A stretch of DNA of 64,000 nucleotides from Candidatus Omnitrophota bacterium (GCA_043826565.1 JBDRPX010000015.1:3317-67316); one strand, 5' to 3'. Numbered from the stretch's first letter, positions 22,861 to 60,275 are shown. Program-made: numbers and translations. Notes: generated by a model not told the origin, from the letters alone.

Positions 22861-22930
22861 TTTAGCTCCTTCTGTTATTACGTATTACTATTAAAAATAG
22901 TACACCATTTCTATTAGCTTGTCAACCAAA

Positions 22931-23126: not shown

Positions 23127-23165
23127 AACTACTATAGTAGTAGTTAGTAGTAGTTGCGTAGTATT
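23127..23165. promoter_or_regulatory. palindromic TAGTAGT-iteron site 2
   Basis: second copy of ACTACTATAGTAGT + TAGTTAGTAGTAGTT about 195 bp from site 1. Confidence 0.5.
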
Positions 23166-23214
23166 TGTGCTATCCGTTGATCTTGATTTTCGATTAAATG
23201 TAGGATTATTTGTC

Positions 23215-24174: not shown

Positions 24175-24226
24175 TTCAGACCTCTGAATATATCATACCG
24201 CCTGGTCGCTAAACACGCAAGAGTTG

Positions 24227-24300
24227 TTATTGCTTTTTTCTAAACCAGCACACCCCAAATATTCCGCTTAAGAAAAGTAATATTGTGGGTAGATAAAATA
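24227..24300 (-). pseudogene. duplicated fragment of PEP-CTERM C-terminal coding segment
   Basis: about 35 bp cccaaatattccgcttaagaaaagtaatattgt nearly identical to the 3' end of the HAF gene; encodes ...LPTILLFLSGIFG in a 63-aa ORF. Confidence 0.4.
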
Positions 24301-24350
24301 AAATGGCGGATCCGCCTTGAGGCGAGATCTCGCCAAATTTTCCAAAAATT
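24301..24350. repeat. GC-rich palindromic module immediately 3' of tRNA-Ser(CGA)
   Basis: contains palindromes GGCGGATCCGCC and GGCGAGATCTCGCC; same palindromes recur at 21462, 33421 and 47196. Confidence 0.55.
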
Positions 24351-24440
24351 TGGCGGAGAGTGAAGGATTCGAACCTTCGGTCCGGTTGCCCGGACAACGG
24401 TTTTCGAGACCGCCACATTAAACCGCTCTGCCAACTCTCC
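24351..24440 (-). tRNA. tRNA-Ser (anticodon CGA), long variable arm
   Basis: minus-sense GGAGAGT..anticodon loop CTCGAAA..variable arm..T-arm GAAGGTTCGAATCCTTC..ACTCTCC-G-CCA. Confidence 0.85.
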
Positions 24441-24539
24441 GCGAATAATCGTAGATTATGAGCGGATATCGAACTCTGTTTTATAGAGTGAGATATCTTT
24501 TTATTCTAATCTTAAAATTTGTCAGCTAAATCTAGCTTT

Positions 24540-24743
24540 TTATCTCGCCGATCTATAATTACCACATTTTTCCTTATGTATAAGCTTTAGCGGTTTTCTG
24601 TATCTTGTGTAACGACACTTAGTTGTCGTATTATGCTCTTTTATTCGCTTATCAACATCTAATGCTATGCCCACATACAGACTTTTATCCCTGCACTCTG
24701 CTATATAAACAAACCATTGTTTTTGAAATACCTGCTTGTCCAT
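24540..24743 (-). CDS. small GIY-YIG nuclease-domain protein (paralog A)
   Basis: MDKQVFQKQWFVYIAECRDKSLYVGIALDVDKRIKEHN matches GIY-YIG motif; start placed at the Met aligning with paralog B. Confidence 0.75.
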   Translation of the reverse strand: MDKQVFQKQWFVYIAECRDKSLYVGIALDVDKRIKEHNTTTKCRYTRYRKPLKLIHKEKCGNYRSAR

Positions 24744-24774
24744 AATCAATGAGTTTTTGGCTCTCACCCTGCTA

Positions 24775-24900
24775 CACAGGGATTCGACCTCATTTGCATA
24801 AAACGCAAATGACCAACTCTCCGAGTTTTTACGCAGTAAAAACGAGGACTTCGAACCTGCCTTTCAGGTGAGAAGTCTTTTATCCCTCTCGCTATGCTCG
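24775..24900 (-). other. tRNA-like remnant / structured leader upstream of GIY-YIG A
   Basis: minus-sense GGAGAGTTGG (same as tRNA-Ser 5' end), 7-bp stem with 7-nt loop, GGTCGAATCC T-loop-like segment, plus hairpin GACTTCTCACCTGAAAGGCAGGTTCGAAGTC also present at 33338. Confidence 0.3.
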
Positions 24901-24991
24901 AGGTGATTTGTTTAACAGCACAAATCAGAACCCGGTTTTTCAGAGTGAGATATCTTCTCTCAGTTACTTTGGTTAAGATTCCTCGCTTCGC

Positions 24992-32703: not shown

Positions 32704-32958
32704 AAATTACCCCCAAGTAGAAACATAATATTCTCTCCTTTTATATCAGAAATTCACTAAAAAAGCAACCCTTAAAGACCTCCGCCGCATCGCCCGCCCC
32801 TTGCTTTTCCAAAAAATTTATGCTATCTTATGCACGTACCGTTAGTTTTGATCGTATGATCTTTTGCGGAAAAATACCTGGGCGGTGATCTGAGCGTAAG
32901 CGAAGATCATCTCGAACAGAGTGAGAGATCTTCAAAAAGCCTACAGGATAAGAATATC

Positions 32959-33291
32959 TTGATGAATAAAGATATATTTGTAAAACCTTGGTTTTTATAT
33001 ATCGCAAAATGTCGAGATGGGACACTTTATGTTGGTGTTGCGCAAGATGTATATAAAAGAATAAAGGAACATAATACAACCAATCGATGTAGATATACGC
33101 GGTTCCGCAAGCCACTAATATTGATATATAAGGAAAAATCTGATAATTATAGCTTAGTGCGAAAAAGAGAATCAGAAGTAAAGAAATTTAGTCGGAAGAA
33201 AAAGCTAGCGCTAATAGAACAAAGAATCTCAGAGAAGCTATCTCACCCCAAAGAACGGGGTTCGATATCCGCTGATCGAAGCAAAAGTTGA
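32959..33291 (+). CDS. small GIY-YIG nuclease-domain protein (paralog B) with basic C-terminal tail
   Basis: MNKDIFVKPWFLYIAKCRDGTLYVGVAQDVYKRIKEHN..; flanked by about 31-bp imperfect direct repeats. Confidence 0.75.
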   Translation: MMNKDIFVKPWFLYIAKCRDGTLYVGVAQDVYKRIKEHNTTNRCRYTRFRKPLILIYKEKSDNYSLVRKRESEVKKFSRKKKLALIEQRISEKLSHPKERGSISADRSKS

Positions 33292-33392
33292 GATCATCTC
33301 GAGCAAACGCGAGAGATCTGATTATATTTAGACATAAGACTTCTCACCTGAAAAACAGGTTCGACGTCCGCTCAAAATTATTAGCATAATTA

Positions 33393-33418
33393 TTCGCGGA
33401 GGAATGGCTGAGCGGTTG
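33393..33418 (+). repeat. 26-bp duplicate of the 5' end of tRNA-Ser(UGA) gene (ttcgc + acceptor/D-arm)
   Basis: ttcgcggaggaatggctgagcggttg identical to 33635..33660; not followed by the rest of a tRNA. Confidence 0.6.
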
Positions 33419-33639
33419 TCCGCCGGGAGGACACAGAGAAGTTGCCTACGGCGAGATCTCGCCCGGCCTAATAAGAAAAATTTTTGATTTTGGCCGAGGC
33501 GGAAATGCGGCTGGTCTTGCGAAGCGAATGAAATGAGCGGAGTCCCGCAAGGATGCTTAAATAAGAGCACTGTCGCGGGGCAAACCGTTGTAACAACGGA
33601 ATACATAGTATACTTAAACAAAAATTTAATATTTTTCGC

Positions 33640-33727
33640 GGAGGAATGGCTGAGCGGTTGAAAGCGGCGGTCTTGAAAACCGTTGTACTGCAAGGTACCG
33701 TGGGTTCGAATCCTACTTCCTCCGCCA
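33640..33727 (+). tRNA. tRNA-Ser (anticodon UGA), long variable arm
   Basis: GGAGGAA..anticodon loop CTTGAAA..variable arm TGTACTGCAAGGTAC..T-arm GTGGGTTCGAATCCTAC..TTCCTCC-G-CCA. Confidence 0.85.
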
Positions 33728-34032
33728 GAACATCAAACCCCCTTCATGGGGGTTTTTATTTTCTAGTCGTGGATGAGGAGGATGAGAACCCAAAAAGAGG
33801 ATTTTAAGGAGGAGGATTGTTCCTTCTTATCGGCGCACGTGAACCCCACGCGGAAGGAAAAGGAACAGCCCGAAGGGCGATAGGGAAAAACCATGAGGGT
33901 TTTTCTCTATAGAGTAAGCGGACCGCAATACCGGCAAAGCCGGTTGTAGGGAAGCGACACGACGGGGGCGTAATCCTACTTCCTCCGCCAGAAAAGCGCC
34001 TTTCACTGAAAGCCTTCTTTCTGGTATAATAA
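33721..34032 (+). repeat. structured non-coding repeat element copy 1, starting at tRNA-Ser 3' end (terminator, hairpin-rich core, duplicated tRNA 3' end, extended -10)
   Basis: about 90% identical to 38747..39045; reading frames not conserved between copies; ends with aatcctacttcctccgcca (19-bp repeat of tRNA 3' end) then TGGTATAAT. Confidence 0.6.
33735..33764 (+). terminator. intrinsic terminator after tRNA-Ser(UGA)
   Basis: AAACCCCCTTCATGGGGGTTTTTATTTTC. Confidence 0.6.
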
Positions 34033-34056
34033 CACATATTTAAAAAGGAAATTTTT

Positions 34057-34911
34057 ATGAAAAAATTAAAACCAAAAGAACCATTACTGGCGCTATTATT
34101 AGCCTGTCTTTTCCCAGGATTAGGACAAGTGTATGCAGGACAGACAAAACGCGGGATTAAATTCTTTTGCCTTTTAGTTGTCTTGCCGTTAATCCCCATC
34201 TTGTATCTTTTACATCCTCAGACAGGGATACCTGCTGTTTTAGGATATGCTTTTCTGGCAATGCTTGGCTTTCTGGTTATTTTAAGTTTTGTTGTGCTTG
34301 TAGACGCATATAAATGTGCAAAATCGTTCAATCGGCATCGTAATATTAAAATAACTACTTCTCGGTCAAAAAAGTTTTGGCTAATTATCTACATTATCTT
34401 TTTTCTCTTCGTGTTCAATCCTAGTTCTCTCGTTGGGCTTTATGTGAAAACATCGGTGATTCAAGCCTTTAAAATCCCGGTAGGCTCAATGATGCCTACA
34501 CTTATTGCAGGAGATCGTATTATTTGTAATAAACTGGCTTATAAAAAATCCGCACCGAAAAGAGGTGATGTTATAATTTTTAAATTTCCGGAAAACCCTA
34601 AAATTGTTTTTATTAAAAGACTCGTGGGATTTCCCGGAGAAACATTAGAAATTCGGAGTGGACAGATTATCATTAATGGCAAAACACTTAAAGAGCCTAA
34701 AGCAATAACACAAACGTTTTATCATAATCGCGGAGAATATGGACAGGAAGAACAAGCTATTACAATCCCAGAAGATAGTTATTTTTGCCTGGGAGATAAC
34801 AGCTATAATAGCAGAGATTCCCGTTATTGGGGGTTTGTCCCGAAAAAGAACCTTATAGGTAAAGCATATAAGATTTATTGGCCTTTTGATAGATCGGGGC
34901 CAATAGAATAA
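34057..34911 (+). CDS. lepB: signal peptidase I with extended multi-TM N-terminal region
   Basis: boxes GSMMPTL (Ser), KRLVGFPGE (Lys), GDNSYNSRDSRYWGFV; about 115-aa N-terminal membrane extension. Confidence 0.85.
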   Translation: MKKLKPKEPLLALLLACLFPGLGQVYAGQTKRGIKFFCLLVVLPLIPILYLLHPQTGIPAVLGYAFLAMLGFLVILSFVVLVDAYKCAKSFNRHRNIKITTSRSKKFWLIIYIIFFLFVFNPSSLVGLYVKTSVIQAFKIPVGSMMPTLIAGDRIICNKLAYKKSAPKRGDVIIFKFPENPKIVFIKRLVGFPGETLEIRSGQIIINGKTLKEPKAITQTFYHNRGEYGQEEQAITIPEDSYFCLGDNSYNSRDSRYWGFVPKKNLIGKAYKIYWPFDRSGPIE

Positions 34912-34925
34912 GAAAGGCATTTAAT

Positions 34926-36413
34926 ATGCGAGTAAACATTTTTGTTGGATTAGTAGTATTAGGACTTGGCCTTTATTGGCTTATCCCGTGGATTCGAAAA
35001 CTTAACGATAAATACATTAAAGGAGAATTTATTGTTAAGAAATATCCTTTGAAGGAAATTTGGAGTCAGATTATTGGCAATAAGGAAGTTTTAAAACGGC
35101 TTTTAATTACCGTTACAATTTTGATTTTAATACGCATGGCTTACCATATCCCCTTACCCTGTATTGACACAACTCCTATGAGGGACTTTTTTTCTAAACA
35201 CTCTACAATGAGCTCTTCTTATCCACAAATATATGTTCTAAATTTAGGGTTATTGCCTTTTACGGGAATGTGTGGTCTTTTGCTTTTGTTTTCAATTATT
35301 ATTCCTCCCCTGCGCAGAAACGTCTTTGGGGGCGAAAAAGGCCGTAATAAATTAATAAAACATACCTTGTTCGGCGCAGCAATACTAGCAATCTTCCAAT
35401 CCTACTCCTTTATGTCTTATGTGTTTGAACAGAATTTAGTCACAATCAACGGCCCTTATATTAATTTTATTATTATAAGTATAACAACTTTGTTAGCTGG
35501 AGTTTTTTGTTTAATTGTTGCCGCAGAAACTATTAATCGATTTGGAATTGGAAATGGATATGCCCTAATTATATCTGAGGCTATTCTGTTAGGAATCATA
35601 TCCAAATTGTATAAACTTCAATCCCTTTTACCTATACTTATGGTTCTTGGAATTCTTTTTGTACTTGGTTATTTTACCCGACTGATAAAACCTGAAGAAA
35701 TAATAAATAAAAAAGGAGAAAAAACAACACTGAAATTCCGGCTTAGCTGGGTTGGACTTGGCCCGCTCCTGCTGGCAAGCACAATTATCATGCCCTTATA
35801 CACTTTAACCCATTTTTGGAATGCTCGATGGATAAGTCATTATTATATTTTTGACATATTGACAGCTTTATTAATTATCCCTACTACTTTTTTATATAGC
35901 AGCATAGTCTTTGACCCCCAATATGTTTCGAAGCTTTTAAATAAATACGGCTATTCCTTTGCAAATAACCCTAAAGAGTTGACTCCAAGCCGCTATCTAG
36001 AAAAAACCGTGCTTAAAGTCCTTCCCATAACCGCTGTTTTATTATGCTTGGGCTATATGCTTCCAAAACTTTTGGTGCATACGAAACTTTATTCAGGATC
36101 AACGATGGTAGTCGTAATCGGAGGAAGATTAGGTCTTTGGGGCTTAACTGGTGCTTTTCTTGATTTACTCGACCAGTTAGAGTTTTTTCATAAAAAGAAA
36201 CTAGCTGGAATAAAAGAATGGGGAATTTGCTATGTAGCCCAGGACGAAATAGAAGCTAGCATAAAAAGTGGATACTTGAGATCACAAGAAATAAAGGCCT
36301 TAGTTAAACCCTATAGATATACTTGGGGCTTACCCATTAGAACAATGGTCGATAAATATGAAATTTATGTACCTCAAGAGCGAGTACAAAAGGCGCGGGA
36401 ACTGATCGTTTAA
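34926..36413 (+). CDS. SecY-homologous translocon-like membrane protein with extra N-terminal TM helix and C-terminal DUF2007-like soluble domain
   Basis: aligns with SecY blocks: LKRLLITVTILILIRMAYHIPLPCID, LGLLPF..IIPPLRR..GGEKGRNKLIKHTLFGAAILAIFQS, GIGNG, FDPQ..LNKYGY, C-terminal TM10-like VVVIGG..LDLLDQLE; then roughly 90 extra residues (EIYVPQERVQKARELIV). Confidence 0.7.
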   Translation: MRVNIFVGLVVLGLGLYWLIPWIRKLNDKYIKGEFIVKKYPLKEIWSQIIGNKEVLKRLLITVTILILIRMAYHIPLPCIDTTPMRDFFSKHSTMSSSYPQIYVLNLGLLPFTGMCGLLLLFSIIIPPLRRNVFGGEKGRNKLIKHTLFGAAILAIFQSYSFMSYVFEQNLVTINGPYINFIIISITTLLAGVFCLIVAAETINRFGIGNGYALIISEAILLGIISKLYKLQSLLPILMVLGILFVLGYFTRLIKPEEIINKKGEKTTLKFRLSWVGLGPLLLASTIIMPLYTLTHFWNARWISHYYIFDILTALLIIPTTFLYSSIVFDPQYVSKLLNKYGYSFANNPKELTPSRYLEKTVLKVLPITAVLLCLGYMLPKLLVHTKLYSGSTMVVVIGGRLGLWGLTGAFLDLLDQLEFFHKKKLAGIKEWGICYVAQDEIEASIKSGYLRSQEIKALVKPYRYTWGLPIRTMVDKYEIYVPQERVQKARELIV

Positions 36414-36432
36414 AACAAAAGGACGCTATTTA

Positions 36433-36879
36433 ATGAAACATCTTAGAAAAAGGTTATGTTTTTTTATACTACTAAGCGCTCTTATTTCTTACAGTTTTGC
36501 TTACGGAAGAGTATCAAGCATTAAGATTAATGAGCAGGCATATGAAGTTATCTATGGGGAGGAAATGACTATATACCTAGGCAAGCCCGCAAATCCACCG
36601 ACCCAACTTATAGCAAAACTTAAAGAATATTTCAAAACTAATAAAAAAATAGAATCTGCATACCTCGCACAAATGGCTGTGCCTCAAGAAAAACAACCTT
36701 CTCATCCAGTAATTGGAATAAAGATGTCTGGTCAAATTGAGACCATTTTAGATACACTGTTTTCTCTGGCAAAAGGATCATTAAGAAAGACCGACTTTGT
36801 TGATTTCATTCCCATTGAGCCTGGGACTACAATCTCAGAGTATATGCTTAAAGAAGTGGAGCCGTTTTATGAAAAATAA
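36433..36879 (+). CDS. secreted hypothetical protein (148 aa)
   Basis: signal peptide MKHLRKRLCFFILLSALISYSFA. Confidence 0.5.
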   Translation: MKHLRKRLCFFILLSALISYSFAYGRVSSIKINEQAYEVIYGEEMTIYLGKPANPPTQLIAKLKEYFKTNKKIESAYLAQMAVPQEKQPSHPVIGIKMSGQIETILDTLFSLAKGSLRKTDFVDFIPIEPGTTISEYMLKEVEPFYEK

Positions 36880-37582
36880 ATTCTTATTGTGTGCATTATT
36901 GTTGGCTATCGTCCTCGCCCCTGCCACCAATGCAATGTCCGAAGTAAAAAGCATTAAAGGCAGAAGCACAATTAAAACAGTTATGCGTGTAAGGTCTTTT
37001 AACTTTTCTGAGATAGAAAATTTGATGGGTAAAAGATGGAAAGAGGTTATTACGCTAAGACCCGATGTTCAAATCCTTTCAATGGGGCCTGATAATGTTG
37101 ATTTAACCCCTGACATTAACATTCCCCAAAAAGGGCTGATAGAGCAGGTATCCGACAAAGATTCCTTACATACAATTATGTATGCCTTTGAAGCTGGAGT
37201 TTTAGAATCTATAAGCATTGCCGGTAAAATCAATCACGTTGAAAGATCAAAAGTGATTGAACAGTCTCTTGCAAAATATGGTGATTATGATGCTATAGAG
37301 GGGGCAGTAACAGAAAAAAATATTGGTGTTTTAAAATGGGATAAGGGAAAGCGTCATATTAAACTTTGGCTGCCTTATTCGAGCAAAAACAAGGAGCAGA
37401 CATTTGCATTGCAGTTTTTATCGCAAAAAGCTCATGAAAAGTTTCAAACCGTAGAAAATGAAATCAAGGCAAAGAAAAAATCCATTACTGGTCAGGTCAC
37501 CCTAGACATCCCCCAAAATACCAAGATAAAAGCACTAAAAGACGAGATAGAAAATATCAAAAAAGCTCATGACAATAGATAA
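36869..37582 (+). CDS. secreted hypothetical protein with post-signal motif SEVKSIKGRSTI
   Basis: start reset to MKNKFLLCALLLAIVLAPATNA (RBS GTGGAG); shares the post-signal motif with the 46028..46666 product. Confidence 0.55.
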   Translation: MKNKFLLCALLLAIVLAPATNAMSEVKSIKGRSTIKTVMRVRSFNFSEIENLMGKRWKEVITLRPDVQILSMGPDNVDLTPDINIPQKGLIEQVSDKDSLHTIMYAFEAGVLESISIAGKINHVERSKVIEQSLAKYGDYDAIEGAVTEKNIGVLKWDKGKRHIKLWLPYSSKNKEQTFALQFLSQKAHEKFQTVENEIKAKKKSITGQVTLDIPQNTKIKALKDEIENIKKAHDNR

Positions 37583-37702
37583 AGCATGTTTACCCTCCCC
37601 TGTTTATCCAAAACAGTTTTCAGGGGGGATTAACGCTGTCCCCTTTAAGCATAATGACAGCAGAATCTTTTGCTAAAGGAATAAGTATGAAAGGAGAAGC
37701 TT

Positions 37703-38479
37703 GTGAAAATTTTTAAAATAATTACATGCCTTTTGGTCTTTTTATTGCTGGCAATTAACATGTCTTACGCTTCCCCAAACAAGGACTATTGTAATAAGAG
37801 GATGGGGTCTGATTATCAAGGGATCGGACGAGAATCTGAAAAATTGCAGGAAGTTGAGTTATTTTATGTTTTGGTGCAAAAACATTTAGAACCAACAAAA
37901 AATGTTGTAGTTGAAAATGCGCGAACTATTTATTTGCTTAAAGGAATAGAGCATGCAAGCAAAGGAAAGTATGATAAAGCAATTGAACAATTTAAAAAAG
38001 CACTTATTCTTAATCCTAAAGATGCCCTAGCACATAATTGCCTTGGGGGAGCTTATAAAAGCAAGGGCATGCTTGATGAAGCAATTAAAGCATACAAAAA
38101 AGCACTTATTCTTAATCCTAAAGATGCCCGCGCACATACTAGCCTTGCAGCAGTATATGAACGCAAAAAAATGCGTGATGAAGCAATCGAAGAATACAAA
38201 AAGGCTATCGCCATTGACCCCGAATATTTCAGGCCTCATTATGACCTTGGAGTAGCCTATAAATGCAAAGGAATGGTTGATGAAGCAATTGAAGAATACA
38301 AAAAAGCTCTTGTCATCGATCCTAACAATGCCAAGACACATTACGAATTGGCATTGTTATATTGCAATAAAAAGCAATATGACCTATCTATTGAACATTG
38401 TGATAAAGCAATTAAGTATGGTAAAAAAAGTTCTATGCTTTTAAAGCGGTTAGCTCCATTCCGAAATAAAGACTATTAA
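37703..38479 (+). CDS. secreted TPR-repeat protein
   Basis: signal peptide; five or more 34-aa repeats of the A..YKKAL.LNPKDA..H..LG.AY type. Confidence 0.8.
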   Translation: MKIFKIITCLLVFLLLAINMSYASPNKDYCNKRMGSDYQGIGRESEKLQEVELFYVLVQKHLEPTKNVVVENARTIYLLKGIEHASKGKYDKAIEQFKKALILNPKDALAHNCLGGAYKSKGMLDEAIKAYKKALILNPKDARAHTSLAAVYERKKMRDEAIEEYKKAIAIDPEYFRPHYDLGVAYKCKGMVDEAIEEYKKALVIDPNNAKTHYELALLYCNKKQYDLSIEHCDKAIKYGKKSSMLLKRLAPFRNKDY

Positions 38480-38491
38480 TCCAAAACATGC

Positions 38492-38731
38492 TTATTCCCC
38501 TCCCCTTCTAATATGCCGAATCGCCCTAATAACAGTCTTTTTACTAACCTTCAGACTCTGGGCTATATCTATGTAGTTCATGCCTAATAGGCATAATTGT
38601 GTGGCTTTTGGGGCTATCTTTTGATATAAAGGGATTTGTTGTGTTGGAAGTACTTTGATATGTGCGTTGATTTCGGCTGCACATTCGACAGGCTCAGTGT
38701 GCCCGGTGGTCACGGTGCGAATTGGTTGCAA
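38492..38731 (-). CDS. small HTH-domain protein (transposase-N-terminus / sigma-70 region-4-like HTH), paralog 1, TTG start
   Basis: LQPIRTVTTGHTEPVECAAEINAHIKVLP...LLGMNYIDIAQSLKVSKKTVIRAI; about 75% identical to the 46947..47186 product; first roughly 90 nt nearly identical at DNA level. Confidence 0.5.
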   Translation of the reverse strand: MQPIRTVTTGHTEPVECAAEINAHIKVLPTQQIPLYQKIAPKATQLCLLGMNYIDIAQSLKVSKKTVIRAIRHIRRGGE

Positions 38732-38746
38732 CTGCGTCCGCCAGAA

Positions 38747-39045
38747 AATCAAACCCCCTTCATGGGGGTTTTTATTTTCTAGTCGTGAATGAGGAGGATG
38801 AGAACCCAAAAAGAGGATTTTAAGGAGGAAGATTGTTCCTCCTTGTCGGCGCACGTACCCCCACCCGGAAGGAAAAGGAACAGCCCGAAGGGCGATAGGG
38901 AAAAACCATGAGGGTTTTCCTCTATGGAGTGAGCGGACCGCAATACCGGCAAAGCCGGTTGTAGGGAAGCGACACGATGGGGGCGTAATCCTACTTCCTC
39001 CGCCAAAAGCACCTTTCTCCAAAAGCCTTCTTTCTGGTATAATAA
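38747..39045 (+). repeat. structured non-coding repeat element copy 2 (terminator, core, tRNA-Ser 3'-end-like segment, extended -10)
   Basis: see 33721..34032; here it abuts the 5' end of the small HTH gene at ...gcgtccgcca. Confidence 0.6.
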
Positions 39046-39131: not shown

Positions 39132-41000
39132 TTAATCCATCACTTTATATAGTATTATCGGATATTTCACTCCGCCTTCCCACTCCTTAAGCTTTTTAAA
39201 TATTTCCGGATGTTCCCGCGCCCAGAAATAATCCTTATGCACTGCTCCTTTATTCCAATGCGGAACCCAGGCAAAGAAATAATTTGCCCCGTGTTTTTCA
39301 AGCTGCGCTGCCCATTCTTCATAAGATTGGGCAACAAAACTTTCTTTATATAGAGTTTTATAAGCAGGGACCTGCACAATATCATGTTGTAATCTCTGTC
39401 CATACAAAGGAGTTGTCAGTTCCTGATGACTGTAAGCAATAACGCTTCCGTCAGGAGCATTATCATTCATCCATTCCCAGGCATTAGCAATACTGCCATA
39501 TATCATCTTATAATACTTATATTGTGATACCTTTTTTGTTTTAAAATATTCGCCTGATATATTTGCCTGATACGGAACAAGCCGCGGCAAAGAAGTGATG
39601 AAAGAAAAAAACAAGCAGTACAGAATTAATCCTCCCATGATTTTCTTCTGCCAGGTGTTTAAATCGTCATATACATAAGCAGTAGCAACTGCTGTTATAC
39701 TGCAAATAAATACTATATACCGCGGAACCGGGCAATTATTGGAAATAAGCCAAAAAAAGATAAGCACAGGAAACAACATGAAAATCAATAAGGATTGTTT
39801 GTCTTTTTTTATAACTGATAAGTATATCGAGTAAATAAGGCTTACGATTCCTAGCGCAAACTGTACCCCAAAACCATTTTCTATAGAATAAGCAAACTCC
39901 CCCCTTACCTTTTCCTTTATAGGATACAAAAACCATTCCAAGGGAGTATTCACAAACCATTTTGAGTAATCGGATGCGGAATGCACAGCAATGGTTCCTT
40001 TAAAAAGCTTAACCCCCAGGAGTTTTATGGTGTATGGAAAAACAGGGTTGCCGGTTAAGATCAGATTCCTAATATACCAAAAACCTCCTGCGGCAAATAA
40101 TAAAACCCCTCCGATAATAATATTATTCCGGGAAGTTTTCTGATTATAAGAAAAAATTAGAAATATTAGCCCTATCGGAATAGCAATAATGCCAGCCGGT
40201 TTCATGCCTGCAGACAGTCCCAAAGCAATACAACTTAACATCACAAAAAGAGGTTTTTTTGTTTGCGAATATCCGAGGATAAAGTTTATCCCTGCGACAA
40301 TAAAACATCCGAACATTAAGTCTACGTAGGAAACAGAACATAAAAGCATTACTACCGGGGTGAATAATATTATAGGTATCGTGACAGCTGGGTTCTTTAT
40401 ATTCAGTTTTTTAGCTATACTGTACGTTGAAAGAGCAAAAATAAAAGCAAAAGGTATTTGAATGAGGTTTAGAATATGCATATTCTTACTTGTAATGTAT
40501 GCCCAAAGCATAACAAGCGATCCGTTTTGAGGAAAATAAGAAGTGTCTCTCAGGGGTTGGATCATCGTTAATCTCTCCGTTTTTACCCATTGGGCAACTG
40601 CGAGGAGATGATATGAAATGCTGTCCCAAGCGTATGGAGGAATGAGTAAACTGAGAAAAAAAATAAGGCCGTATGCTATGAGAATGAATTGGAATGCAAG
40701 AACAGTCTCTATTGGTATTGCTTTACAGTAAAAAGAGGATATTAACTTTTTCCATTCAATCTTGCTGCTTGTACATACGAGGATAAACAATGATATTGCG
40801 ATATTTGAGGAAACAACCAATACTGAATTTAAAAATCCAAGGATCCCGAGAATAGCTTGCGTCACTATGATCTGAAAAACAAACAAGGTAAAGCCAGCAA
40901 TTATAATATCACTTTTCTCTTCCAATCTCGTGGCAAAATACTTAAGATAAGAGAATGTAATGAATAATGATATTGATAACAATATGATCAGGTATGCCAT
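39132..41000 (-). CDS. GT-C fold polytopic membrane glycosyltransferase-like protein with C-terminal soluble domain
   Basis: at least 12 TM helices over about 450 aa then hydrophilic C-terminal domain; architecture like ArnT/PMT-type enzymes. Confidence 0.55.
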   Translation of the reverse strand: MAYLIILLSISLFITFSYLKYFATRLEEKSDIIIAGFTLFVFQIIVTQAILGILGFLNSVLVVSSNIAISLFILVCTSSKIEWKKLISSFYCKAIPIETVLAFQFILIAYGLIFFLSLLIPPYAWDSISYHLLAVAQWVKTERLTMIQPLRDTSYFPQNGSLVMLWAYITSKNMHILNLIQIPFAFIFALSTYSIAKKLNIKNPAVTIPIILFTPVVMLLCSVSYVDLMFGCFIVAGINFILGYSQTKKPLFVMLSCIALGLSAGMKPAGIIAIPIGLIFLIFSYNQKTSRNNIIIGGVLLFAAGGFWYIRNLILTGNPVFPYTIKLLGVKLFKGTIAVHSASDYSKWFVNTPLEWFLYPIKEKVRGEFAYSIENGFGVQFALGIVSLIYSIYLSVIKKDKQSLLIFMLFPVLIFFWLISNNCPVPRYIVFICSITAVATAYVYDDLNTWQKKIMGGLILYCLFFSFITSLPRLVPYQANISGEYFKTKKVSQYKYYKMIYGSIANAWEWMNDNAPDGSVIAYSHQELTTPLYGQRLQHDIVQVPAYKTLYKESFVAQSYEEWAAQLEKHGANYFFAWVPHWNKGAVHKDYFWAREHPEIFKKLKEWEGGVKYPIILYKVMD

Positions 41001-41234
41001 AATTTAATAAAAAGAGCTCCTATCCCCTGCCAAAAACAATCTGTTAATCCCCAGTGATAATACGAATAAAACAGTATAAATAATATGGCCACCACGAGGA
41101 ACAGGCTGCCGAACAACGCTTCATCCTTTTTTTCTAAAGAATCCTGATTCACCTAAAACCTCTTTCGTTTCGAAATATTGTATGTTAAAATTATAATACA
41201 TTTTTGTTAACTTTAACAAATTTAAATTATAATC

Positions 41235-42908
41235 ATGAAAAAACATTCCCCTATACCCAGAGCGCCCTCTCTAAAAAAAGACAATCTTATGTTTATCATT
41301 GTTTTGGGTCTTTGGGTTATTACCATGTTACATTTTGATCCAAAGATTTTGAGATACCTGCAAGAAAATAGTTCCTTATTCTCTCGTAGCTCTGTCATAG
41401 CCTTTGTTGTTTGTGTTAATATCTTTTGGCTATTCGGAATCTATCATCTGACAATCGCGTTTTTTGCCGCATTCATTGCGCGCCCTCCAAAAATCCATAA
41501 AAAAGGACAAAAAGAGAATCAGCCGCGCGTAGCCGTCCTCTATTTAACCATGAATGATTTTAGGGAGGAAGCTATTTGCTCTTGCTTGAAACAAGACTAT
41601 AAAAACTTTGATGTATACATCCTTGATGATAGCACCTCTGTAGAATGGCAAGCAAAAGTTGATCAATTTATCGCTATACATGAAAAGGCTATCCTTATTC
41701 GCAGGCAGACCCGGGAGCATTTTAAAGCCGGGAATCTTAATAATGCTTTCGAACAACTCTATTCGCGGTATGAATATTTTGCCGTTTCCGATTCCGATGG
41801 AATACTTCCAAAAGATTTTATCGGAAAACTTCTCCCTTATTTTTCTCTGGATAAGCAGATCGGCTTTGTTCAGGCCAATCAGCGATGGAACGAAGCTCAG
41901 GATTCTGAATTTGCTAAAGATTTAGGCATAAACACCGATATCCATTGGAAATATTATGTGCCGGCTAAAAATATGTACGGATTCCTTATGTTTTACGGCC
42001 ACGGAGCTATTATCCGAAGTGATGTCTGGAAGAAAGCCGGAGGATTTCCTCATACTATAACTGAAGACATAGCTTTTTCTTCCGTATTAAGAGAAAACGG
42101 CTACTACGGAGTTTTTGCTCCGGAAGTAGTCTGCCTGGAGGATTTTCCTATAGACTACAAATCTTTCCGGATTAGAAATGAACGCTGGATAAAAGGAACA
42201 ACTGAATATCTGTATAAATGGTATCCCCGCCTTCTTTTTTCCCGGAATGCCCCCTGGTCTGAAAAACTTGATGTCCTTGTATCCGCGGGGGTTTTATTAC
42301 AGCCGTTTGTTTTTATCTTATTCTTGTTGCTAGTAAGTATTGTTTTACCGGTAACAACAAAATTGTTTGGCTTACATATCCCTCTTGTAGCAACGTTCTC
42401 TCCTATGAAAGCAATGCTGGCAACTTACTTGTCAGGAATTTATCTGCAAACCAGCTGGACAATGGATTTCTTTTTGATTATGTTAATTGCCGCCTTTGCG
42501 CAATTTGCTCCACTTTTAATCAGTCTTATCAAAGATCCTATTAAAATCACGCGCTATATAGGAAGTTTTTTGTTTGTGTGTTTATCCTCAAGCGTGGCTT
42601 CTTTTGTGAATATATTAACTATCCTGATAACACAAAAAAGTAGATTTTTAGTAACCGGAACAAAAAAGAAAAAAGATACTCTTGAGCATAAGATTATTTA
42701 TTTATTTGAAATAATCTTTTGTGCTTTTCTGATTTTTTCTGCTTTATCTACAGGCAATCTCTGGCTGCTAACAGTAGCCATATCTGTATTTCTTAATCCC
42801 TTTGTTTATAAATCGCATTGGGACGACCCCCTATTAAGTGCGGCTATTTATCTCCCTTCCCTTATTATACTATTAATCATCCTTATGGTATCCGCTGTTT
42901 TAGTATAA
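41235..42908 (+). CDS. processive family-2 glycosyltransferase (cellulose/chitin/hyaluronan-synthase-like polysaccharide synthase)
   Basis: N-terminal TMs, GT-A core with DDS / SDSDG, processivity motif QANQRW (QxxRW), C-terminal TM bundle. Confidence 0.8.
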   Translation: MKKHSPIPRAPSLKKDNLMFIIVLGLWVITMLHFDPKILRYLQENSSLFSRSSVIAFVVCVNIFWLFGIYHLTIAFFAAFIARPPKIHKKGQKENQPRVAVLYLTMNDFREEAICSCLKQDYKNFDVYILDDSTSVEWQAKVDQFIAIHEKAILIRRQTREHFKAGNLNNAFEQLYSRYEYFAVSDSDGILPKDFIGKLLPYFSLDKQIGFVQANQRWNEAQDSEFAKDLGINTDIHWKYYVPAKNMYGFLMFYGHGAIIRSDVWKKAGGFPHTITEDIAFSSVLRENGYYGVFAPEVVCLEDFPIDYKSFRIRNERWIKGTTEYLYKWYPRLLFSRNAPWSEKLDVLVSAGVLLQPFVFILFLLLVSIVLPVTTKLFGLHIPLVATFSPMKAMLATYLSGIYLQTSWTMDFFLIMLIAAFAQFAPLLISLIKDPIKITRYIGSFLFVCLSSSVASFVNILTILITQKSRFLVTGTKKKKDTLEHKIIYLFEIIFCAFLIFSALSTGNLWLLTVAISVFLNPFVYKSHWDDPLLSAAIYLPSLIILLIILMVSAVLV

Positions 42909-43031
42909 AACAGAAAAATATTGACAAAATAAATCATAATCTGATAAAATTTAATCTATTGCTTTATATTATATGGGGTTATATTAGTGTTTTATGGCAG
43001 ATTAAAAACTACCGAAAAAAGGGAGGGTGCT

Positions 43032-43901
43032 ATGAAGAATCTATCGCGTTTTGTTATGGGAGTCCTGGTTTTTACATTAGCTGTTTTTAGTTTCGGATTT
43101 GTTGCCGGCGAAGTGGTCCTGCAAAAAAAGCTGGATATTGTTAAACAGCGCATCCCTAATCAGTGGTGGAACGGCGGTTGGGATGAAGAAGCTGATTTAC
43201 AAGACATTATCGCGCAATCCGGCAAAGACAAGAGCCAAAAAGCTCAGGCACAGTATTACATTGCCGGACAATACTATTCCAACAGAGAGCACCAAAAAGC
43301 ACTCCAGGAATATCGCAAATTAATAAAAGACTACCCCGATGCCTGGCTGGAATGCCAGAAAGCGCAGTTTGAAATCGGACAGATCAATTTATACAGGTTA
43401 AATGAGCCGGAAGAGGCAATTTATGAATACCGGAAAATAATTGACAATTACGAGAACAGTTTCATGAAACCGAAAGCACAGCTGATGATCGCAAGGGCTT
43501 ATCGCAAACAGCAACAATACGATTCAGCTCTCAAAGAATATTCTAAGGTATTAGAGTTATATCCTGAATACAGCAGCGAAGTAACCGAAACTCACCTGGA
43601 TATCGCGGAGATGAAAATTGTGCAGGCAGTACTGCCGGGAGTAAGCGCAGTGGAAAAAGAAACACTGTTAAACCAAGCAATTCTCTCTTTCAAAAAAGCT
43701 TATGAAATATGCCCGTTAAATCATCCTGAGTTTATGGAAAGAGCTTTAGACGGTGTCTGCCGCGCATTTCGCTGCTTAGACATGAATCTTGTCAGAGCCA
43801 ACAATTTTGTAAAGTTTCAGAAATACGGCGCCGCCGGCGCAGACGGCACAGAAGGAACAGACGATGACCTAATAAATCCTTTGGAGGAAATTAAATCATG
43901 A
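43032..43901 (+). CDS. secreted/membrane-anchored TPR-like repeat protein
   Basis: start at MKNLSRFVMGVLVF (RBS GGGAGGG); helical repeats with YY..A..YY..G pattern. Confidence 0.6.
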   Translation: MKNLSRFVMGVLVFTLAVFSFGFVAGEVVLQKKLDIVKQRIPNQWWNGGWDEEADLQDIIAQSGKDKSQKAQAQYYIAGQYYSNREHQKALQEYRKLIKDYPDAWLECQKAQFEIGQINLYRLNEPEEAIYEYRKIIDNYENSFMKPKAQLMIARAYRKQQQYDSALKEYSKVLELYPEYSSEVTETHLDIAEMKIVQAVLPGVSAVEKETLLNQAILSFKKAYEICPLNHPEFMERALDGVCRAFRCLDMNLVRANNFVKFQKYGAAGADGTEGTDDDLINPLEEIKS

Positions 43902-44548
43902 GGACGGCAATTAAGCTATTCATAGTAACAGCATTTATTGTTGTTATTTCGTTTCAGGTGTTAAGCATTGCCGCTTATGCGCCCTTTGATTACACCCCCT
44001 ATGTCGGATATGTCGAGCAGATTGAAGCTCAATTAGCTGCGGCAATGTATCCTGAGGCAATCCTAGGATTGCGATCGGAAGATGAAAAAAGTGAAGAGAA
44101 AGCCCAGACCCTGGCAAGTCAATTAATAAAAGATTATGAACAATTAGAAGTTAGCCCTGCACATAAACAACAGGCAATGGAAGAAGTAGCCATGTTGCTG
44201 TATAGAAAAAAAGATTATGAGCAAGCCTTAATAAAAGCGAAGACGATTTTGGAAGAATACCCGAAAGATTTGGTAGGGTCGAGGGTTTTATGGATATGTT
44301 ATCGGCTAAAAGCACAAACATCCGAAAAGCAAAAAAATTATGGAAAAGCTATAAATGAATATGAAAACATTTTAAGATATCCAGTTTTTGATAATTTTGA
44401 AGCAGCAACATATCATTTAATCGGAAAACTTTATGAGAAAAAAGAAGACAAAGAATCTGCAAAAGTATCCTATCAACATATTATTGATAATTTTCCAAAT
44501 ATGAATCTAACAAAGATCATAAAAAAGAGGATGTCAAATTTAAAATGA
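43898..44548 (+). CDS. secreted TPR-like helical-repeat protein
   Basis: signal/anchor MRTAIKLFIVTAFIVVISFQVLSIAAYA; 4-bp overlap with upstream gene. Confidence 0.55.
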   Translation: MRTAIKLFIVTAFIVVISFQVLSIAAYAPFDYTPYVGYVEQIEAQLAAAMYPEAILGLRSEDEKSEEKAQTLASQLIKDYEQLEVSPAHKQQAMEEVAMLLYRKKDYEQALIKAKTILEEYPKDLVGSRVLWICYRLKAQTSEKQKNYGKAINEYENILRYPVFDNFEAATYHLIGKLYEKKEDKESAKVSYQHIIDNFPNMNLTKIIKKRMSNLK

Positions 44549-46044
44549 AAACTCTAAAAAAAATAAATATTTTTTTACTATCCATTACATTCCTTTTTAT
44601 GTGGGCGCAAAATGTTTCGAGTTGTGAGCAGACAAGATATGCTGACATCTTCACAGAAAAGGATATAATTTCTTATAATGGGGGGAGTACTGAAATTGAC
44701 GTTTACGTTTTTGATATCGAAGAAGACTGGTATGTGGCAGGAGCAACAGTAGATCTGGAATGTTTTAAAAAAGTAGGAGAAGAAGTTACTTGGGTTGTGT
44801 TTGCTTCCGGAGTTACTGAGTATGATTATGAGGGAGGCGAATTTGGGCTACATCATACGACACTAACATTTGAAAATCCATCTAGTTATGGGATACATGA
44901 ACAGGTTATCTCAGCGAAAGAGCTTGAAGGCGGTGATTATTCTTCGGCAAGAATCGATTGCTACGAAGTTAAGATAATTGACCCCACTGAGTATCCGATA
45001 TATGTTGGGAGCAATACAACGGTTTCGCTTTACGCAACAAATTATGCGGGATCGCACGAAGACTACGAAGGAGAATTTACCTGGAGCAAAGTTAGCGGAT
45101 CAGGTGAATTATCAATGGATGTAATTCAAAATGGAAATTTTTCATGTTTGACATTTAGCACAAATACTGGAGGAACATATAAGCTAGAGGTAACTTTTTC
45201 CGGGCCAAAAATGAATGGTTCTGATGAGACTGGAGATATTTATGTGGTTCAAGCTGAATTTTTAAAGGAAGGAACCAGCACCCCCATATCCGAAGCACAT
45301 GTAGGCACAGACGGGAATTCTGCAACAACCCTTGACGGAGAAACAAAACAGATTGATATTAAAATTACGCCTAGTAATATAACAGTTGATTTTGATTTGA
45401 GCAATGGAGAAGTAGCCATAACTCCTACTAGCGGTAGCGGCACGACAACAGTAACCATTACGGGAAAGGGTTCTGGATATTCTGATTCTGAGATAATAGT
45501 TAAAAAAGATGATATGGGATTAGGCTCTTTGGATGTACAAGTACATAAGCCGGATAAGTTAGTTTACCAATACAGCAACTCATTAAGTGCTGCCCCTGGA
45601 GATGTGGGGGCAGGAAACATGTATGTTTTTGATGTAAAAGACATTCAAAATCGTGTTATTCCCAATATTGGAGGATATCGTGTGTATGAACGTATGCATA
45701 TTGATAGAAATGAAGATGGTCTAGAAGGTTATTTTTACTCTAATCTTATAGCAAAGTTAGATTGTAATCCTTATGATGGCATTGTGTTGCCAGACACGGA
45801 AATGTTTAATGATACTCTCCAGCTATGGATTCCAGACTATACAACAACAAGTGATTTATCAGCAGATGGAATCGTCCAATTGCACAATAGTTGGTATTTT
45901 ATGGACATTTATCTTAAAAGTTCTACTTATCAATATACTTGGACACCTATAATACAAGGAACCGCTGTGACAGGATTACAGATGTCGCGGTCTTTACTTA
46001 GCGATTCTCAAAAAGTTACGGAGGCTAATGATGATATCGATTAG
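44545..46044 (+). CDS. secreted beta-rich protein (499 aa), possibly Ig-like/adhesin-type
   Basis: signal peptide; T/S/G/Y-rich beta-strand-like composition; 4-bp overlap upstream. Confidence 0.6.
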   Translation: MKTLKKINIFLLSITFLFMWAQNVSSCEQTRYADIFTEKDIISYNGGSTEIDVYVFDIEEDWYVAGATVDLECFKKVGEEVTWVVFASGVTEYDYEGGEFGLHHTTLTFENPSSYGIHEQVISAKELEGGDYSSARIDCYEVKIIDPTEYPIYVGSNTTVSLYATNYAGSHEDYEGEFTWSKVSGSGELSMDVIQNGNFSCLTFSTNTGGTYKLEVTFSGPKMNGSDETGDIYVVQAEFLKEGTSTPISEAHVGTDGNSATTLDGETKQIDIKITPSNITVDFDLSNGEVAITPTSGSGTTTVTITGKGSGYSDSEIIVKKDDMGLGSLDVQVHKPDKLVYQYSNSLSAAPGDVGAGNMYVFDVKDIQNRVIPNIGGYRVYERMHIDRNEDGLEGYFYSNLIAKLDCNPYDGIVLPDTEMFNDTLQLWIPDYTTTSDLSADGIVQLHNSWYFMDIYLKSSTYQYTWTPIIQGTAVTGLQMSRSLLSDSQKVTEANDDID

Positions 46045-46666
46045 AATGCATAACATATTAATTATTCTGGTTATTTATCTATGTTTATTTGCTGTTTTCT
46101 CTGATTTTTCTTATTCTGAAGTAAAAAACATTAAAGGTGGCAGTACAATTACAGTAATGCCCAGAAAAACAAATAAGCAAGAAAAAGAACGTGTTCTAAA
46201 AGCGTTTGAGAAAAAAAATGTTGATGATATAATGTTAGATATTTATCCACGAAGATATGAAACACAAAACATATTGAAAAGTATTGTTAAATCAAAAGAA
46301 CATAGAGTAGAAACACGTATTTTAGCAGCGCAAATTTTAGGAGAGATAAGGTTAAACTATGATGTAGACATTTTAGTTAAAAATATGCGGCTAGGCTACG
46401 CAAATTCCGCTGAATTTACAGAATTAGATAAGTTTAACTTCCCTGTTGGCTATGCAATAATAAATATCGGCATTCCTGCCCGACTACATTTATTGAATGA
46501 AATAAAAAGCTCTAAAGATGAGGAGATTATTCGCCTTTGCGCGTTTGTACTAATGAAAATCGAGGATCAAGACATTGCAAAAGTTATTCTTGAGCGTGAA
46601 ATCAAAAAGGAAGAACAGATAAATCAGAAGGCTAACCTTGAGAAAGCACTATCATATTTAAAATGA
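46028..46666 (+). CDS. secreted helical-repeat protein with post-signal motif SEVKNIKGGSTI
   Basis: signal peptide then SEVKNIKGGSTITVM; HEAT/armadillo-like later part. Confidence 0.55.
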   Translation: MMISIRMHNILIILVIYLCLFAVFSDFSYSEVKNIKGGSTITVMPRKTNKQEKERVLKAFEKKNVDDIMLDIYPRRYETQNILKSIVKSKEHRVETRILAAQILGEIRLNYDVDILVKNMRLGYANSAEFTELDKFNFPVGYAIINIGIPARLHLLNEIKSSKDEEIIRLCAFVLMKIEDQDIAKVILEREIKKEEQINQKANLEKALSYLK

Positions 46667-46944: not shown

Positions 46945-46946
46945 AA

Positions 46947-47186
46947 TTACTCCCCTCCTTTTTTTAAATGATTAAGCGCCTTTAGGACGGTTTTCTTGCT
47001 CACTTTAAGACTCTTTGCTATGTCGGGATAGGTCATGCCTAATAAGCGCAATTGAGTTGCCTTTTGGGCTACTTTTTGGTATAAAGGAGGTGGTTGTATC
47101 GGTAATATTTTGATATGTGCGTTAATTTCGGCTGCACATTCGACAGGCTCAGTGTGCCCGGTGGTCACGGTGCGAATTGGTTGCAA
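46947..47186 (-). CDS. small HTH-domain protein, paralog 2
   Basis: MQPIRTVTTGHTEPVECAAEINAHIKILP..LLGMTYPDIAKSLKVSKKTVLKAL. Confidence 0.55.
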   Translation of the reverse strand: MQPIRTVTTGHTEPVECAAEINAHIKILPIQPPPLYQKVAQKATQLRLLGMTYPDIAKSLKVSKKTVLKALNHLKKGGE

Positions 47187-47339
47187 CTGCGTCCGCCAAG
47201 CTTTCTTGGCGGATCCGCCAGTTAATAAAAACTCCCCTTCCCTAATTATGGGATGGGAGTTTTATTTTCCGTTTGTTCTGTTTTTTATAGCCACAAGTTT
47301 TTTTCTTTGTTATAATAGGATTCAATAAAAAGAACCCTT

Positions 47340-57749: not shown

Positions 57750-60275
<2,526 letters not shown>

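Follow-up and report, generated by a model that had tools for sequence, protein, structure and literature searches.

The window analysed here, the whole stretch of 64,000 nucleotides taken from a Candidatus Omnitrophota genome (GCA_043826565.1, JBDRPX010000015.1:3317-67316), carries an intact tRNA-Ser(UGA) gene whose 3' end is followed directly by a repeat of roughly 300 bp, here called U. Two copies of U each stand at the head of a block of genes (islets A and B), each block is closed by a small minus-strand HTH gene, and behind the second HTH gene lies a segment, B', presumed to be the original trailer of the tRNA gene (Table 1). Islet A carries genes for signal peptidase I (lepB, 34057-34911), a divergent SecY-like protein (34926-36413), an SseB_C protein (36433-36879), a hypothetical protein (36797-37582) and a TPR protein (37703-38479), while islet B carries a PMT_2-like gene on the minus strand, a GT2 gene and genes for two TPR proteins and two hypothetical proteins. 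The relatives of lepB, the nearest with 57-60% identity, have different neighbours, no synteny with the locus and no U.

Table 1. Features of the tRNA-Ser(UGA) locus and of the paralogous tRNA-Ser gene, in window coordinates
Feature	Position	Strand	Evidence
tRNA-Ser(CGA), paralogue	24351..24440	-	ARAGORN
tRNA-Ser(UGA), intact	33640..33727	+	ARAGORN; Rfam tRNA, 60.1 bits
Junction 1, attL-type, tRNA/U1	33721-33727 (last 7 nt of tRNA)	+	Copy alignment begins here
U1, copy 1, left end of islet A	33728..34032	+	93.7% identical to 38744-39045
Intrinsic terminator at start of U1 (AAACCCCCTTCATGGGGGTTT + T-run)	33735..33765	+	Terminator scan
Degenerate inverted copy of tRNA-Ser 3' end (GTGGATGAGGAGGATGAGAACCCA)	33769..33792	+	17 nt, 82% complementary to 33701-33717
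Hairpin-rich core: GTTCCTTC..GAAGGAA..GGAAC, GCCCGAAGGGC, 13-bp hairpin 33880-33910, CCGGCAAAGCCGG	33818..33971	+	
Direct 22-nt copy of tRNA-Ser 3' end plus 3 trailer bases (AATCCTACTTCCTCCGCCAGAA)	33972..33993	+	
Trailer-like hairpin CCAGAAA..TTTCTGG, then promoter	33994..34032	+	Promoter scan, inverted-repeat search
Islet A cargo, GC 0.359	34057..38479	+	Pfam
HTH1, 73-aa sigma-70 region 4 / invertase-type HTH, right end of islet A	38492..38713	-	Pfam, homologues
Right-end site region, 91 bp, 99% identical to 47107-47198, ends GGTGCGAATTGGTTGCAACTGCG-TCCGCCA	38652..38743	+	
U2, copy 2, left end of islet B	38744..39045	+	Copy alignment, terminator scan
Islet B cargo, GC 0.368	39132..46666	.	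Pfam
HTH2, paralogue of HTH1, right end of islet B	46947..47168	-	80% nucleotide identity over 285 bp
TCCGCCA junction 3, attR-type, HTH2/native-type trailer	47192..47198	+	
B', presumed original tRNA-Ser(UGA) trailer	47199..47339	+	Likeness to tRNA-Ser(CGA) trailer

The segments 33715-34032 and 38731-39045 align with 93.7% identity over 318 columns and two indels (1 and 2 nt), so the two-copy repeat of common architecture described in the original prediction is real, although its figure of about 90% identity was too low. As had also been claimed, the likeness begins exactly at TCCGCCA in both places, in copy 1 at the 3' end of tRNA-Ser(UGA) and in copy 2 at 38737-38743, upstream of the HTH gene, and no reading frame is kept between the copies, in agreement with a non-coding repeat. 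It is scarcely credible that the two copies come from a MAG contig that was mis-joined or duplicated at the repeat. An independent Logan assembly of SRR26275510 does break inside U1, its contig beginning at window position 33933, as assemblers do at repeats, but the same contig confirms the join of U1, lepB and the SecY-like gene at 100% identity, the two copies differ at about 20 positions besides the two indels and hence are distinct loci, and the join of HTH gene, TCCGCCA and U is seen independently in another metagenome.

Further copies, which the original prediction had proposed to look for at tRNA-like CCGCCA ends, were found in none of the phage, plasmid, viral (IMG/VR), species-representative genome and JGI metagenome collections. 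A blastn search of the unit in its "distant" setting gave no match among phages and plasmids, two k-mers of U gave nothing in IMG/VR, and a protein search with the unit translated in all six frames, meant to reveal spurious ORFs annotated across further copies, returned nothing. Two k-mer results were set aside: among species-representative genomes CCGGCAAAGCCGGTTGTAGGG matched solely in two Nitrospirota MAGs, within a hairpin repeat unrelated to U, and the 17 loci matched by CAGCCCGAAGGGCGATAGGG in JGI metagenomes had only the 20-29-mer in common and belong to other repeat families.

In each copy the scan picked up the terminator said to follow the junction immediately (in U1 at 33735-33755 with a T-run behind it; in U2 at 38751-38771, where the feature spans 38751-38781). 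Next to it lies the degenerate inverted copy of the tRNA-Ser 3' end, because of which GAGGAGGA in the 5' part of U is indeed complementary to the TCCTCC of its 3' part. The core is as packed with hairpins as had been described, and its folding is more stable than that of shuffled sequences on both strands (z of -3.3 on the plus and -3.0 on the minus strand). The claimed exact 19-bp repeat of the tRNA-Ser 3' end, AATCCTACTTCCTCCGCCA, occurs three times in the window (33709, 33972 and 38987) where 0.03 occurrences are expected; both copies of U hold the 19 nt, and in copy 1 the identity reaches 22 nt. We read the copy in U1 either as what remains of a tRNA end that was displaced or as a second TCCGCCA site. 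The "T-arm-like segment" of the original prediction comes down to a weak resemblance between GGGGGCGTAATCC and GTGGGTTCGAATCC, and a reading of U as a decayed tRNA-Ser gene with insertions was rejected, there being no significant similarity outside the 3' fragment. At its right end U closes with the extended -10 element TGGTATAAT, present in both copies as described, while a -35 element that passes the scan occurs in copy 1 only (TTCACT at 34002-34007, a 17-nt spacer and the -10 at 34022-34030). The idea that U donates a promoter to the genes downstream is plausible for copy 1, in which the promoter lies 26 nt upstream of lepB; in copy 2 it points at the 3' end of a convergent minus-strand gene (39132-41000).

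A structured unit with a tRNA-like end could be an RNA gene, and the original prediction had offered a novel tmRNA-like or tRNA-like RNA as one of its readings. In that case the core would be a structured non-coding RNA, either with a CCA end or acting as a regulator of the adjacent HTH gene, that was duplicated together with its flanks. The stability of the fold fits with this, as does the potential pairing of GGAGGAR with UUCCUCC, which the lone A/G difference between the copies preserves, and a minus-strand hairpin with a C(UUCG)G loop can be read from the sequence. However, ARAGORN called neither a tmRNA nor an extra tRNA at U, and the tmRNA-style split acceptor was rejected on that ground; Rfam at gathering thresholds found nothing at U beyond the tRNA in the whole window, and even at E values up to 10 the region 33200-34200 gave the tRNA plus chance-level matches. 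Consensus folding of the two copies gave 63-64 pairs per strand and 0 compensatory changes, a count that carries almost no covariation power with two sequences. Wobble-type single changes numbered three on each strand, so that neither strand is favoured, and an assignment of the strand by such substitutions was ruled out. No promoter lies upstream of the core, a terminator stands directly before it, and the right two thirds of U are missing from the homologue in the other metagenome. U has neither the covariance-model match nor the conserved pairing by which a tmRNA or tRNA-like gene is recognised, and we regard an RNA gene as quite improbable.

The observation that changes the picture is a second pair of repeats. 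The segments 38459-38743 and 46914-47198, which hold a small HTH gene and its upstream region, are 80% identical over 285 bp; the final 91 bp before TCCGCCA are 99% identical, the remainder of the gene is about 72% identical, and the similarity stops exactly at TCCGCCA, where that of U begins. Since the HTH pair ends at the same heptamer, the layout of the locus is tRNA/U1-cargo A-HTH1/U2-cargo B-HTH2/B', and the repeat spacings give the lengths of islets A and B, 5016 and 8455 bp. The start of HTH1 (GVG) is placed from the ATG of the homologues P0121 and P0122, the latter beginning with MTTGHTEP, equivalent to GTG at 38713 in the window. In a PHROGs scan HTH2 gave a weak match to the HTH at the C-terminus of DNA invertases.

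The locus has three types of junction, tRNA/U1 at 33721, HTH1/U2 at 38737 (the tandem junction) and HTH2/trailer at 47192, and this set is the pattern expected for an attL, a tandem (attP-type) junction and an attR after two successive insertions. The segment behind the last junction is built like the trailer of the tRNA-Ser(CGA) gene (24296-24350): both have a fold-back of the CCA end (CCAAGCTTTCTTGG in B'), the 12-mer GGCGGATCCGCC (47208-47219 in B') and a T-run, which in B' is part of a terminator at about 47232-47268. The exact 12-mer occurs in the 64 kb only in B' and at 24305-24316, with 0.06 occurrences expected at up to 1 mismatch. B' also holds a TATAAT box (47311-47316) ahead of the gene at 47340. 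A reading of B' as a U without its core was tried and dropped, the MAFFT alignment being unconvincing and showing a similar build only. Directly after the CCA of the intact tRNA begins DNA of foreign appearance: the 13.5 kb from the tRNA to B' have a GC content of 0.373, compared to 0.418 and 0.417 in the flanks, and the whole islets A and B (0.371 and 0.374) rank second lowest among 102 windows of 13.5 kb. The tRNA is spared, the core repeats are direct and the junctions are hybrid, as in genomic islands inserted at tRNA 3' ends, and the signature of site-specific recombination that the original prediction had seen at the tRNA-Ser 3' end is present in the junctions and in the HTH partner repeat.

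We consider it likely that two related islets without an integrase stand one behind the other between tRNA-Ser(UGA) and the trailer that originally followed it, and that U is their conserved left end, which is non-coding. The islets would have entered, or been shuffled, by site-specific recombination with the crossover within TCCGCCA, in two successive insertions between the tRNA and B' that made U the left arm and the HTH gene the right arm. U itself may be a tRNA-Ser trailer region that travels with the islet, and a circle excised between the TCCGCCA of a tRNA and that of a downstream HTH gene would carry exactly such a trailer. The terminator after the CCA, the inverted copy at 33769-33792 and the direct copy at 33972-33993, behind which lies a fold-back trailer resembling B' and the CGA trailer in style, suggest this origin. 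In such a role U would supply the tRNA with a terminator, hold what is left of older events, including a displaced tRNA 3' end and the fold-back trailer belonging to it, and offer an outward promoter to the first cargo gene. The direct and inverted copies of the tRNA 3' end within U are not required by the islet model and need an extra history, and the cargo, with lepB and the SecY-like gene, could be ordinary chromosomal genes.

A narrower reading keeps U itself as the mobile unit. Here the 263-bp segment of terminator, core and tRNA 3' copy, enclosed by direct TCCGCCA(GAA) repeats, would be a miniature cassette that a recombinase acting in trans inserts and excises at TCCGCCA sites, independently of the neighbouring genes. 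A perfect 22-nt direct repeat does enclose copy 1, and copy 2 lies between copies of TCCGCCA with 16 nt at 81% identity; a 45-nt "class-1" block beside the HTH-linked site in other genomes is likewise bounded in L027 by TCCGCC(A/C) and TCCGCCA. Against this, the similarity between the copies goes 42 bp beyond the right TCCGCCA up to the -10 box, both copies sit at the same position relative to an islet, and no solo copy occurs in the collections searched; the homologue in the other metagenome keeps the left ~115 nt, has a 92-nt insertion and lacks the tRNA 3' copy, which means that the unit is not conserved as one separate piece. Nor does U resemble a MITE, as the repeat search of the unit found no terminal inverted repeats and the window holds two copies only, instead of many copies with short target-site duplications. 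We therefore find a miniature cassette improbable, and the mobile element of about 300 bp originally proposed gives way to an islet end, with its partner HTH repeat at the other end of each islet. As an observation on the L027 block itself, it resembles a diverged duplicate of the site.

The case for the islets is strengthened by the HTH-linked site in other genomes. The HTH family comprises 51 homologues of 70-140 aa, across which the stretch WRTQLQPIRT is nearly invariant; its DNA is TGGCGGACGCAGTTGCAACCAATTCGAAC, the reverse complement of which ends in TCCGCCA. The stretch is coding in some members (start MRSTRLRAPADIKNWRTQ) and non-coding in others, and since the site is nearly invariant in either case, the comparison of these sequences suggests that the constraint acts on the DNA itself. 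In all nine distinct instances, which come from at least five other metagenomic organisms, the sequences upstream differ and the similarity starts at TGGCGGA. Several contigs carry the site repeatedly in the same orientation with unrelated cargo in between, three times in L026 (Aerophobetes), twice in L027-L030 and three times in L038. The L038 array starts at a tRNA-Ser(UGA) located after serS, and the cassettes that come next contain genes for XRE regulators, a methyltransferase and toxin-antitoxin pairs. Two further loci, L034 and L032, share a flank of 91% identity that is joined at TCCGCCA to tRNA-Ser(GGA) in the former and to an HTH gene in the latter. This pair is the wider family's stand-in for an unoccupied site; for the locus in the window, the similar trailer of tRNA-Ser(CGA) is the only such proxy.

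The closest HTH homologue (72% aa identity) is found in another metagenome (L035/L036), where HTH gene, TCCGCCA and the left ~115 nt of U form a contiguous block with 77-85% identity and a 92-nt insertion. This homologue of U holds the terminator, GAGAACCCAAAAAGAGGATT (part of the inverted copy of the tRNA 3' end) and the first hairpin, while the rest is absent. The left part of U is accordingly linked to the HTH site rather than to the tRNA, and the right part, with the tRNA 3' copy, is by this comparison specific to the window's lineage.

With only two copies of U in the data, the same layout could in principle arise by recombination at a 7-bp microhomology, and an ordinary segmental duplication, or homologous recombination of the Campbell type between copies of U and of the HTH gene that were already present, with TCCGCCA as the microhomology, would need no special enzyme. 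The heptamer is over-represented in the genome (25 occurrences where 6.8 are expected) and is part of common terminator hairpins, and no recombinase was found. But the recurrence of the TGGCGGA breakpoint in nine distinct instances speaks against this, as do its location at tRNA-Ser 3' ends in L034 and L038 and the conserved dyad-symmetric site around it, and we judge a duplication of this kind highly improbable.

The geometry of the site, counted from its centre between the T and the C at the start of TCCGCCA, gives an indication of the enzyme. In every instance the half on the HTH side has the motif GGT(T/G)CGAAT at positions 24-16, followed by N14, and this right-side half-site overlaps the 5' end of the small HTH gene. 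The T-loop of tRNA-Ser, GGTTCGA(A/G)T (GGTTCGAAT), has its motif at positions 19-11, 5 bp nearer the centre. The islet has the conserved HTH-linked half-site on its right side, and the T-loop gives the same motif on the tRNA side. In L032 and L034 the other arm carries the inverted motif at 16-24. The window's U-side half-site is without the inverted GGTGCGAAT at +16..+24 and reaches dyad matches of 8-10/24, so that HTH/U departs from a canonical symmetric attP; in place of the motif, this half-site carries GGGTTTGAT (reverse complement), spaced as in an attB. One 17-bp arm of the site reads TGCAACCAATTCGAACC.

In large serine integrases, the zinc-ribbon-domain (ZD) motif lies 5 bp nearer the centre in attB than in attP (Rutherford et al. 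2013, PMC3783163). The sites of the wider family are alike in having a dyad of about 48 bp (15/24 matches in L032), the same 5-bp shift, with the outer 9-bp motif at 16-24 in the attP-type and at 11-19 in the tRNA (attB-type), and a non-palindromic central dinucleotide, TC. Unlike the sites of these enzymes, however, they have no linked integrase gene, and the window's U-side half is without the motif. By the match of this geometry to attP and attB, the recombinase is probably a large serine integrase acting in trans.

No such enzyme came to light in the sequences covered. Among the window's ORFs of at least 90 aa there is no integrase or recombinase of any class, although an integrase using the tRNA-Ser site had been envisaged; the PHROGs scan of the window's hypothetical proteins gave no recombinase, and neither did the precomputed Pfam lists within 10 kb of the sites in other loci or the about ten cassettes examined for an integrase. 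An autonomous parent element using the site was sought in the window, in 12 related loci and in IMG/VR, where neither the HTH-linked site nor HTH homologues occur, and none was found. GIY-YIG genes, which lie upstream of both tRNA-Ser genes, were considered as the recombinase and dismissed, as none lies near the sites in other genomes. From this, the enzyme must be supplied in trans, unless the islets are relics that have become fixed.

Several known systems share parts of this arrangement. The Dehalococcoides ssrA islands (McMurdie et al. 2011, PMC3146451) stand in tandem downstream of a tRNA-like gene, with short direct repeats of its 3' end, a conserved module at one edge, variable cargo and a serine-class recombinase. 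Their repeat is 20 bp long with the crossover in the T-loop, most carry a DsiB/DsiA integrase module, and some, which have no genes for integration, are presumed to move together with adjacent islands (PMC3146451). The islets are like them in tandem stacking, 3'-end direct repeats, a conserved edge module and varying cargo, and unlike them in that the core TCCGCCA lies at the very 3' end, the edges are an HTH gene and a non-coding segment of about 300 bp, and no island recombinase is present.

The concept of cis-mobilizable elements (CIMEs) and of accretion goes back to the primary literature on Streptococcus. As summarised in PMC3146451, it covers att-flanked segments without recombination and transfer genes, which is what the islets are. 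CIMEs are, however, defined relative to a cognate ICE that provides the integrase, and no such element is seen here.

The tycheposons of Prochlorococcus (Hackl et al., bioRxiv 10.1101/2020.12.28.424599) target tRNA genes, including tRNA-Ser(UGA), pile up at the island tRNA, leave partial tRNA repeats and degenerate remnants, and carry tyrosine recombinases. In contrast, the present locus has no recombinase, and the repeated site consists of 7 nt of the tRNA and an HTH-linked half-site. The locus is different from ssrA islands, CIMEs and tycheposons in its lack of an integrase in the cassettes, its HTH gene overlapping the site and its terminal TCCGCCA core.

Integrons consist of cassettes in same-orientation arrays, with promoter-poor units and a recombinase encoded outside the cassettes. 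The same-orientation arrays of promoter-poor units, the conserved terminal recombination module, the lack of a recombinase within the cassettes and the toxin-antitoxin cargo of L038 are reminiscent of them. Nevertheless, there is no attC imperfect palindrome with R'' and R' cores, no IntI and no attI; the TCCGCCA copies are direct and not inverted, the units are multi-gene and 3-8 kb long, the conserved module is an HTH protein gene and a tRNA serves as the anchor of the array.

It is tempting to go one step further and to take the small HTH gene and its overlapping TCCGCCA site of about 48 bp as the mark of an integron-like system of cassettes that has yet to be described and that would have its anchor at the tRNA-Ser genes of several uncultivated phyla, among them Omnitrophota and Aerophobetes. 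The cassettes would hold several genes but no recombinase, and an enzyme whose gene lies outside them would capture, stack and shuffle them; this might be a large serine recombinase for which the tRNA T-loop serves as an attB half-site. U would be carried as the leading end. We advance this wider reading tentatively and think it rather doubtful in its full form.

That the 300-bp repeat is probably the end of an island, and neither a new RNA nor a miniature element, is a deflationary result for the finding as it was first stated. What is of interest instead are tandem islets without a recombinase of their own, a strongly conserved HTH-linked site that recurs beside tRNA-Ser genes in several candidate phyla, and a geometry that points to a serine integrase using the tRNA T-loop as a half-site; the main part of the value lies in the wider family of HTH-linked sites. 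If the site is confirmed, TGGCGGACGCAGTTGCAACCAATTCGAAC would be a handle for mapping flexible gene cassettes in genomes known from metagenomes only and could guide the search for the missing recombinase.

A further islet may be present at tRNA-Ser(CGA), the paralogue in the window of the tRNA-Ser(UGA) gene that precedes islets A and B. At the end of tRNA-Ser(CGA), TCCGCCA is followed by AAT..GGCGAGAyCTCGCC, and a second copy of this arrangement lies 2.85 kb downstream, so that the pair encloses Fic and DUF3466-like genes in the part of the window with the lowest GC (0.34 to 0.37). TCCGCCA was found 25 times in the whole window against an expected 6.8, and many of the intergenic copies lie within TGGCGGA/TCCGCCA or GGCGAGAyCTCGCC hairpins, which look like terminators.

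The 5' side of the tRNA-Ser genes also carries repeated sequence. The first 24 nt of tRNA-Ser(UGA) and 6 upstream bases are duplicated upstream of the gene at 96.7% identity, and a second segment resembles its D and anticodon arms, with 2 of 300 shuffles scoring equally well. These pieces look like decayed tRNA fragments, which suggests that the 5' side, too, was rearranged in the past. Upstream of both tRNA-Ser genes there is also a small GIY-YIG gene (67% nucleotide identity; regions 32883-33375 and 24458-24971), the copy at tRNA-Ser(CGA) being possibly disrupted, together with short repeats that contain T-arm-like GGTTCGAyrTCCGC motifs.

Many of the HTH sites, the TCCGCCA-ending sites overlapping a small HTH gene at islet right ends, adjoin a 45-nt block that we call class-1. 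From its motif pattern, TGGCGGA-N15-TTCGAGCC versus TGGCGGA-N15-TTCGAAC in the HTH site, this block appears to be a tandem duplication of that site which has since diverged. The N-terminal MRSTRLRAPADIKN of longer HTH isoforms comes from the class-1 block, and an XRE-family gene directed away from the HTH site follows it.

The cargo of islet A includes a signal peptidase I with a TM2-like N-terminal extension, a SecY-like protein that is divergent (its match to Pfam SecY reaches only 4e-25) and an SseB_C protein, which together may constitute an accessory secretion module.

Several repeat families elsewhere have k-mers in common with U, the repeat at islet left ends. Exact 20-21-mers are shared with GC-rich REP-like intergenic hairpins, GCCCTCAAGCAGCCCGAAGGGCGAYAGGGC, which are frequently paired (L004, L010, L011, L013, L018), and with Nitrospirota hairpins, CCACCGGCAAAGCCGGTTGTAGGGGCGAGGC.. 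(L002, L003), and the same small hairpin modules thus recur across unrelated repeat families. A multi-copy structured element of ~160 nt in loci from JGI Ga0183095/97/98 and Ga0070399 (L005, L006, L008, L009, L016, L017, L019, L020) matches the U core in one 20-mer and in how three short motifs are ordered. It is built as GGACAAUCGCC...AGGAGGAUUCC-AAA-GGAAUCC-GGAAGCCCC-AGCCCGAAGGGCGAUAGGGG-CGGAAGCGUGUCC, enclosed by a long variable stem, and had no Rfam match; in L020 the GGAUUCC/GGAAUCC stem has a single compensatory change.

In the metagenomic locus L035 (1-400, minus-strand view), a tandem array with a ~60-nt period (..CTAATCGCTAAACGCTATACGCTAACCGCTGCTTTACGTCCCTC..) lies downstream of the homologue of the left part of U. 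Two neighbouring hypothetical genes in the window, neither of which had a Pfam match, carry an 80-nt direct repeat (94%) at their upstream ends. At its right end the window covers the replication-origin neighbourhood, and in L038, a locus from another genome or metagenome, dnaN-dciA...serS immediately precedes tRNA-Ser(UGA) and the cassette array that belongs to it.

Coordinates of features in the window and, where a locus is named, in other loci
Feature	Position	Strand
80-nt repeat	15031-15110; 16283-16362	
Hypothetical genes	15164-16066; 16395-17054	-
Possible islet at tRNA-Ser(CGA)	21501-24357	-
GIY-YIG gene, tRNA-Ser(CGA)	about 24536-24743	-
GIY-YIG gene, tRNA-Ser(UGA)	32959-33291	+
Apparent tRNA fragments	33389-33630	
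Duplicated tRNA 5' end	33389-33418	
D/anticodon-arm likeness	33463-33500	
Islet A cargo, signal peptidase I to SseB_C	34057-36879	
serS, rtcB, archease, gyrA, gyrB, dciA, dnaN, dnaA (origin neighbourhood)	within 51898-63484	-
Class-1 block region, L026	3334-3388; 11195-11249	
Class-1 block region, L027	1747-1808
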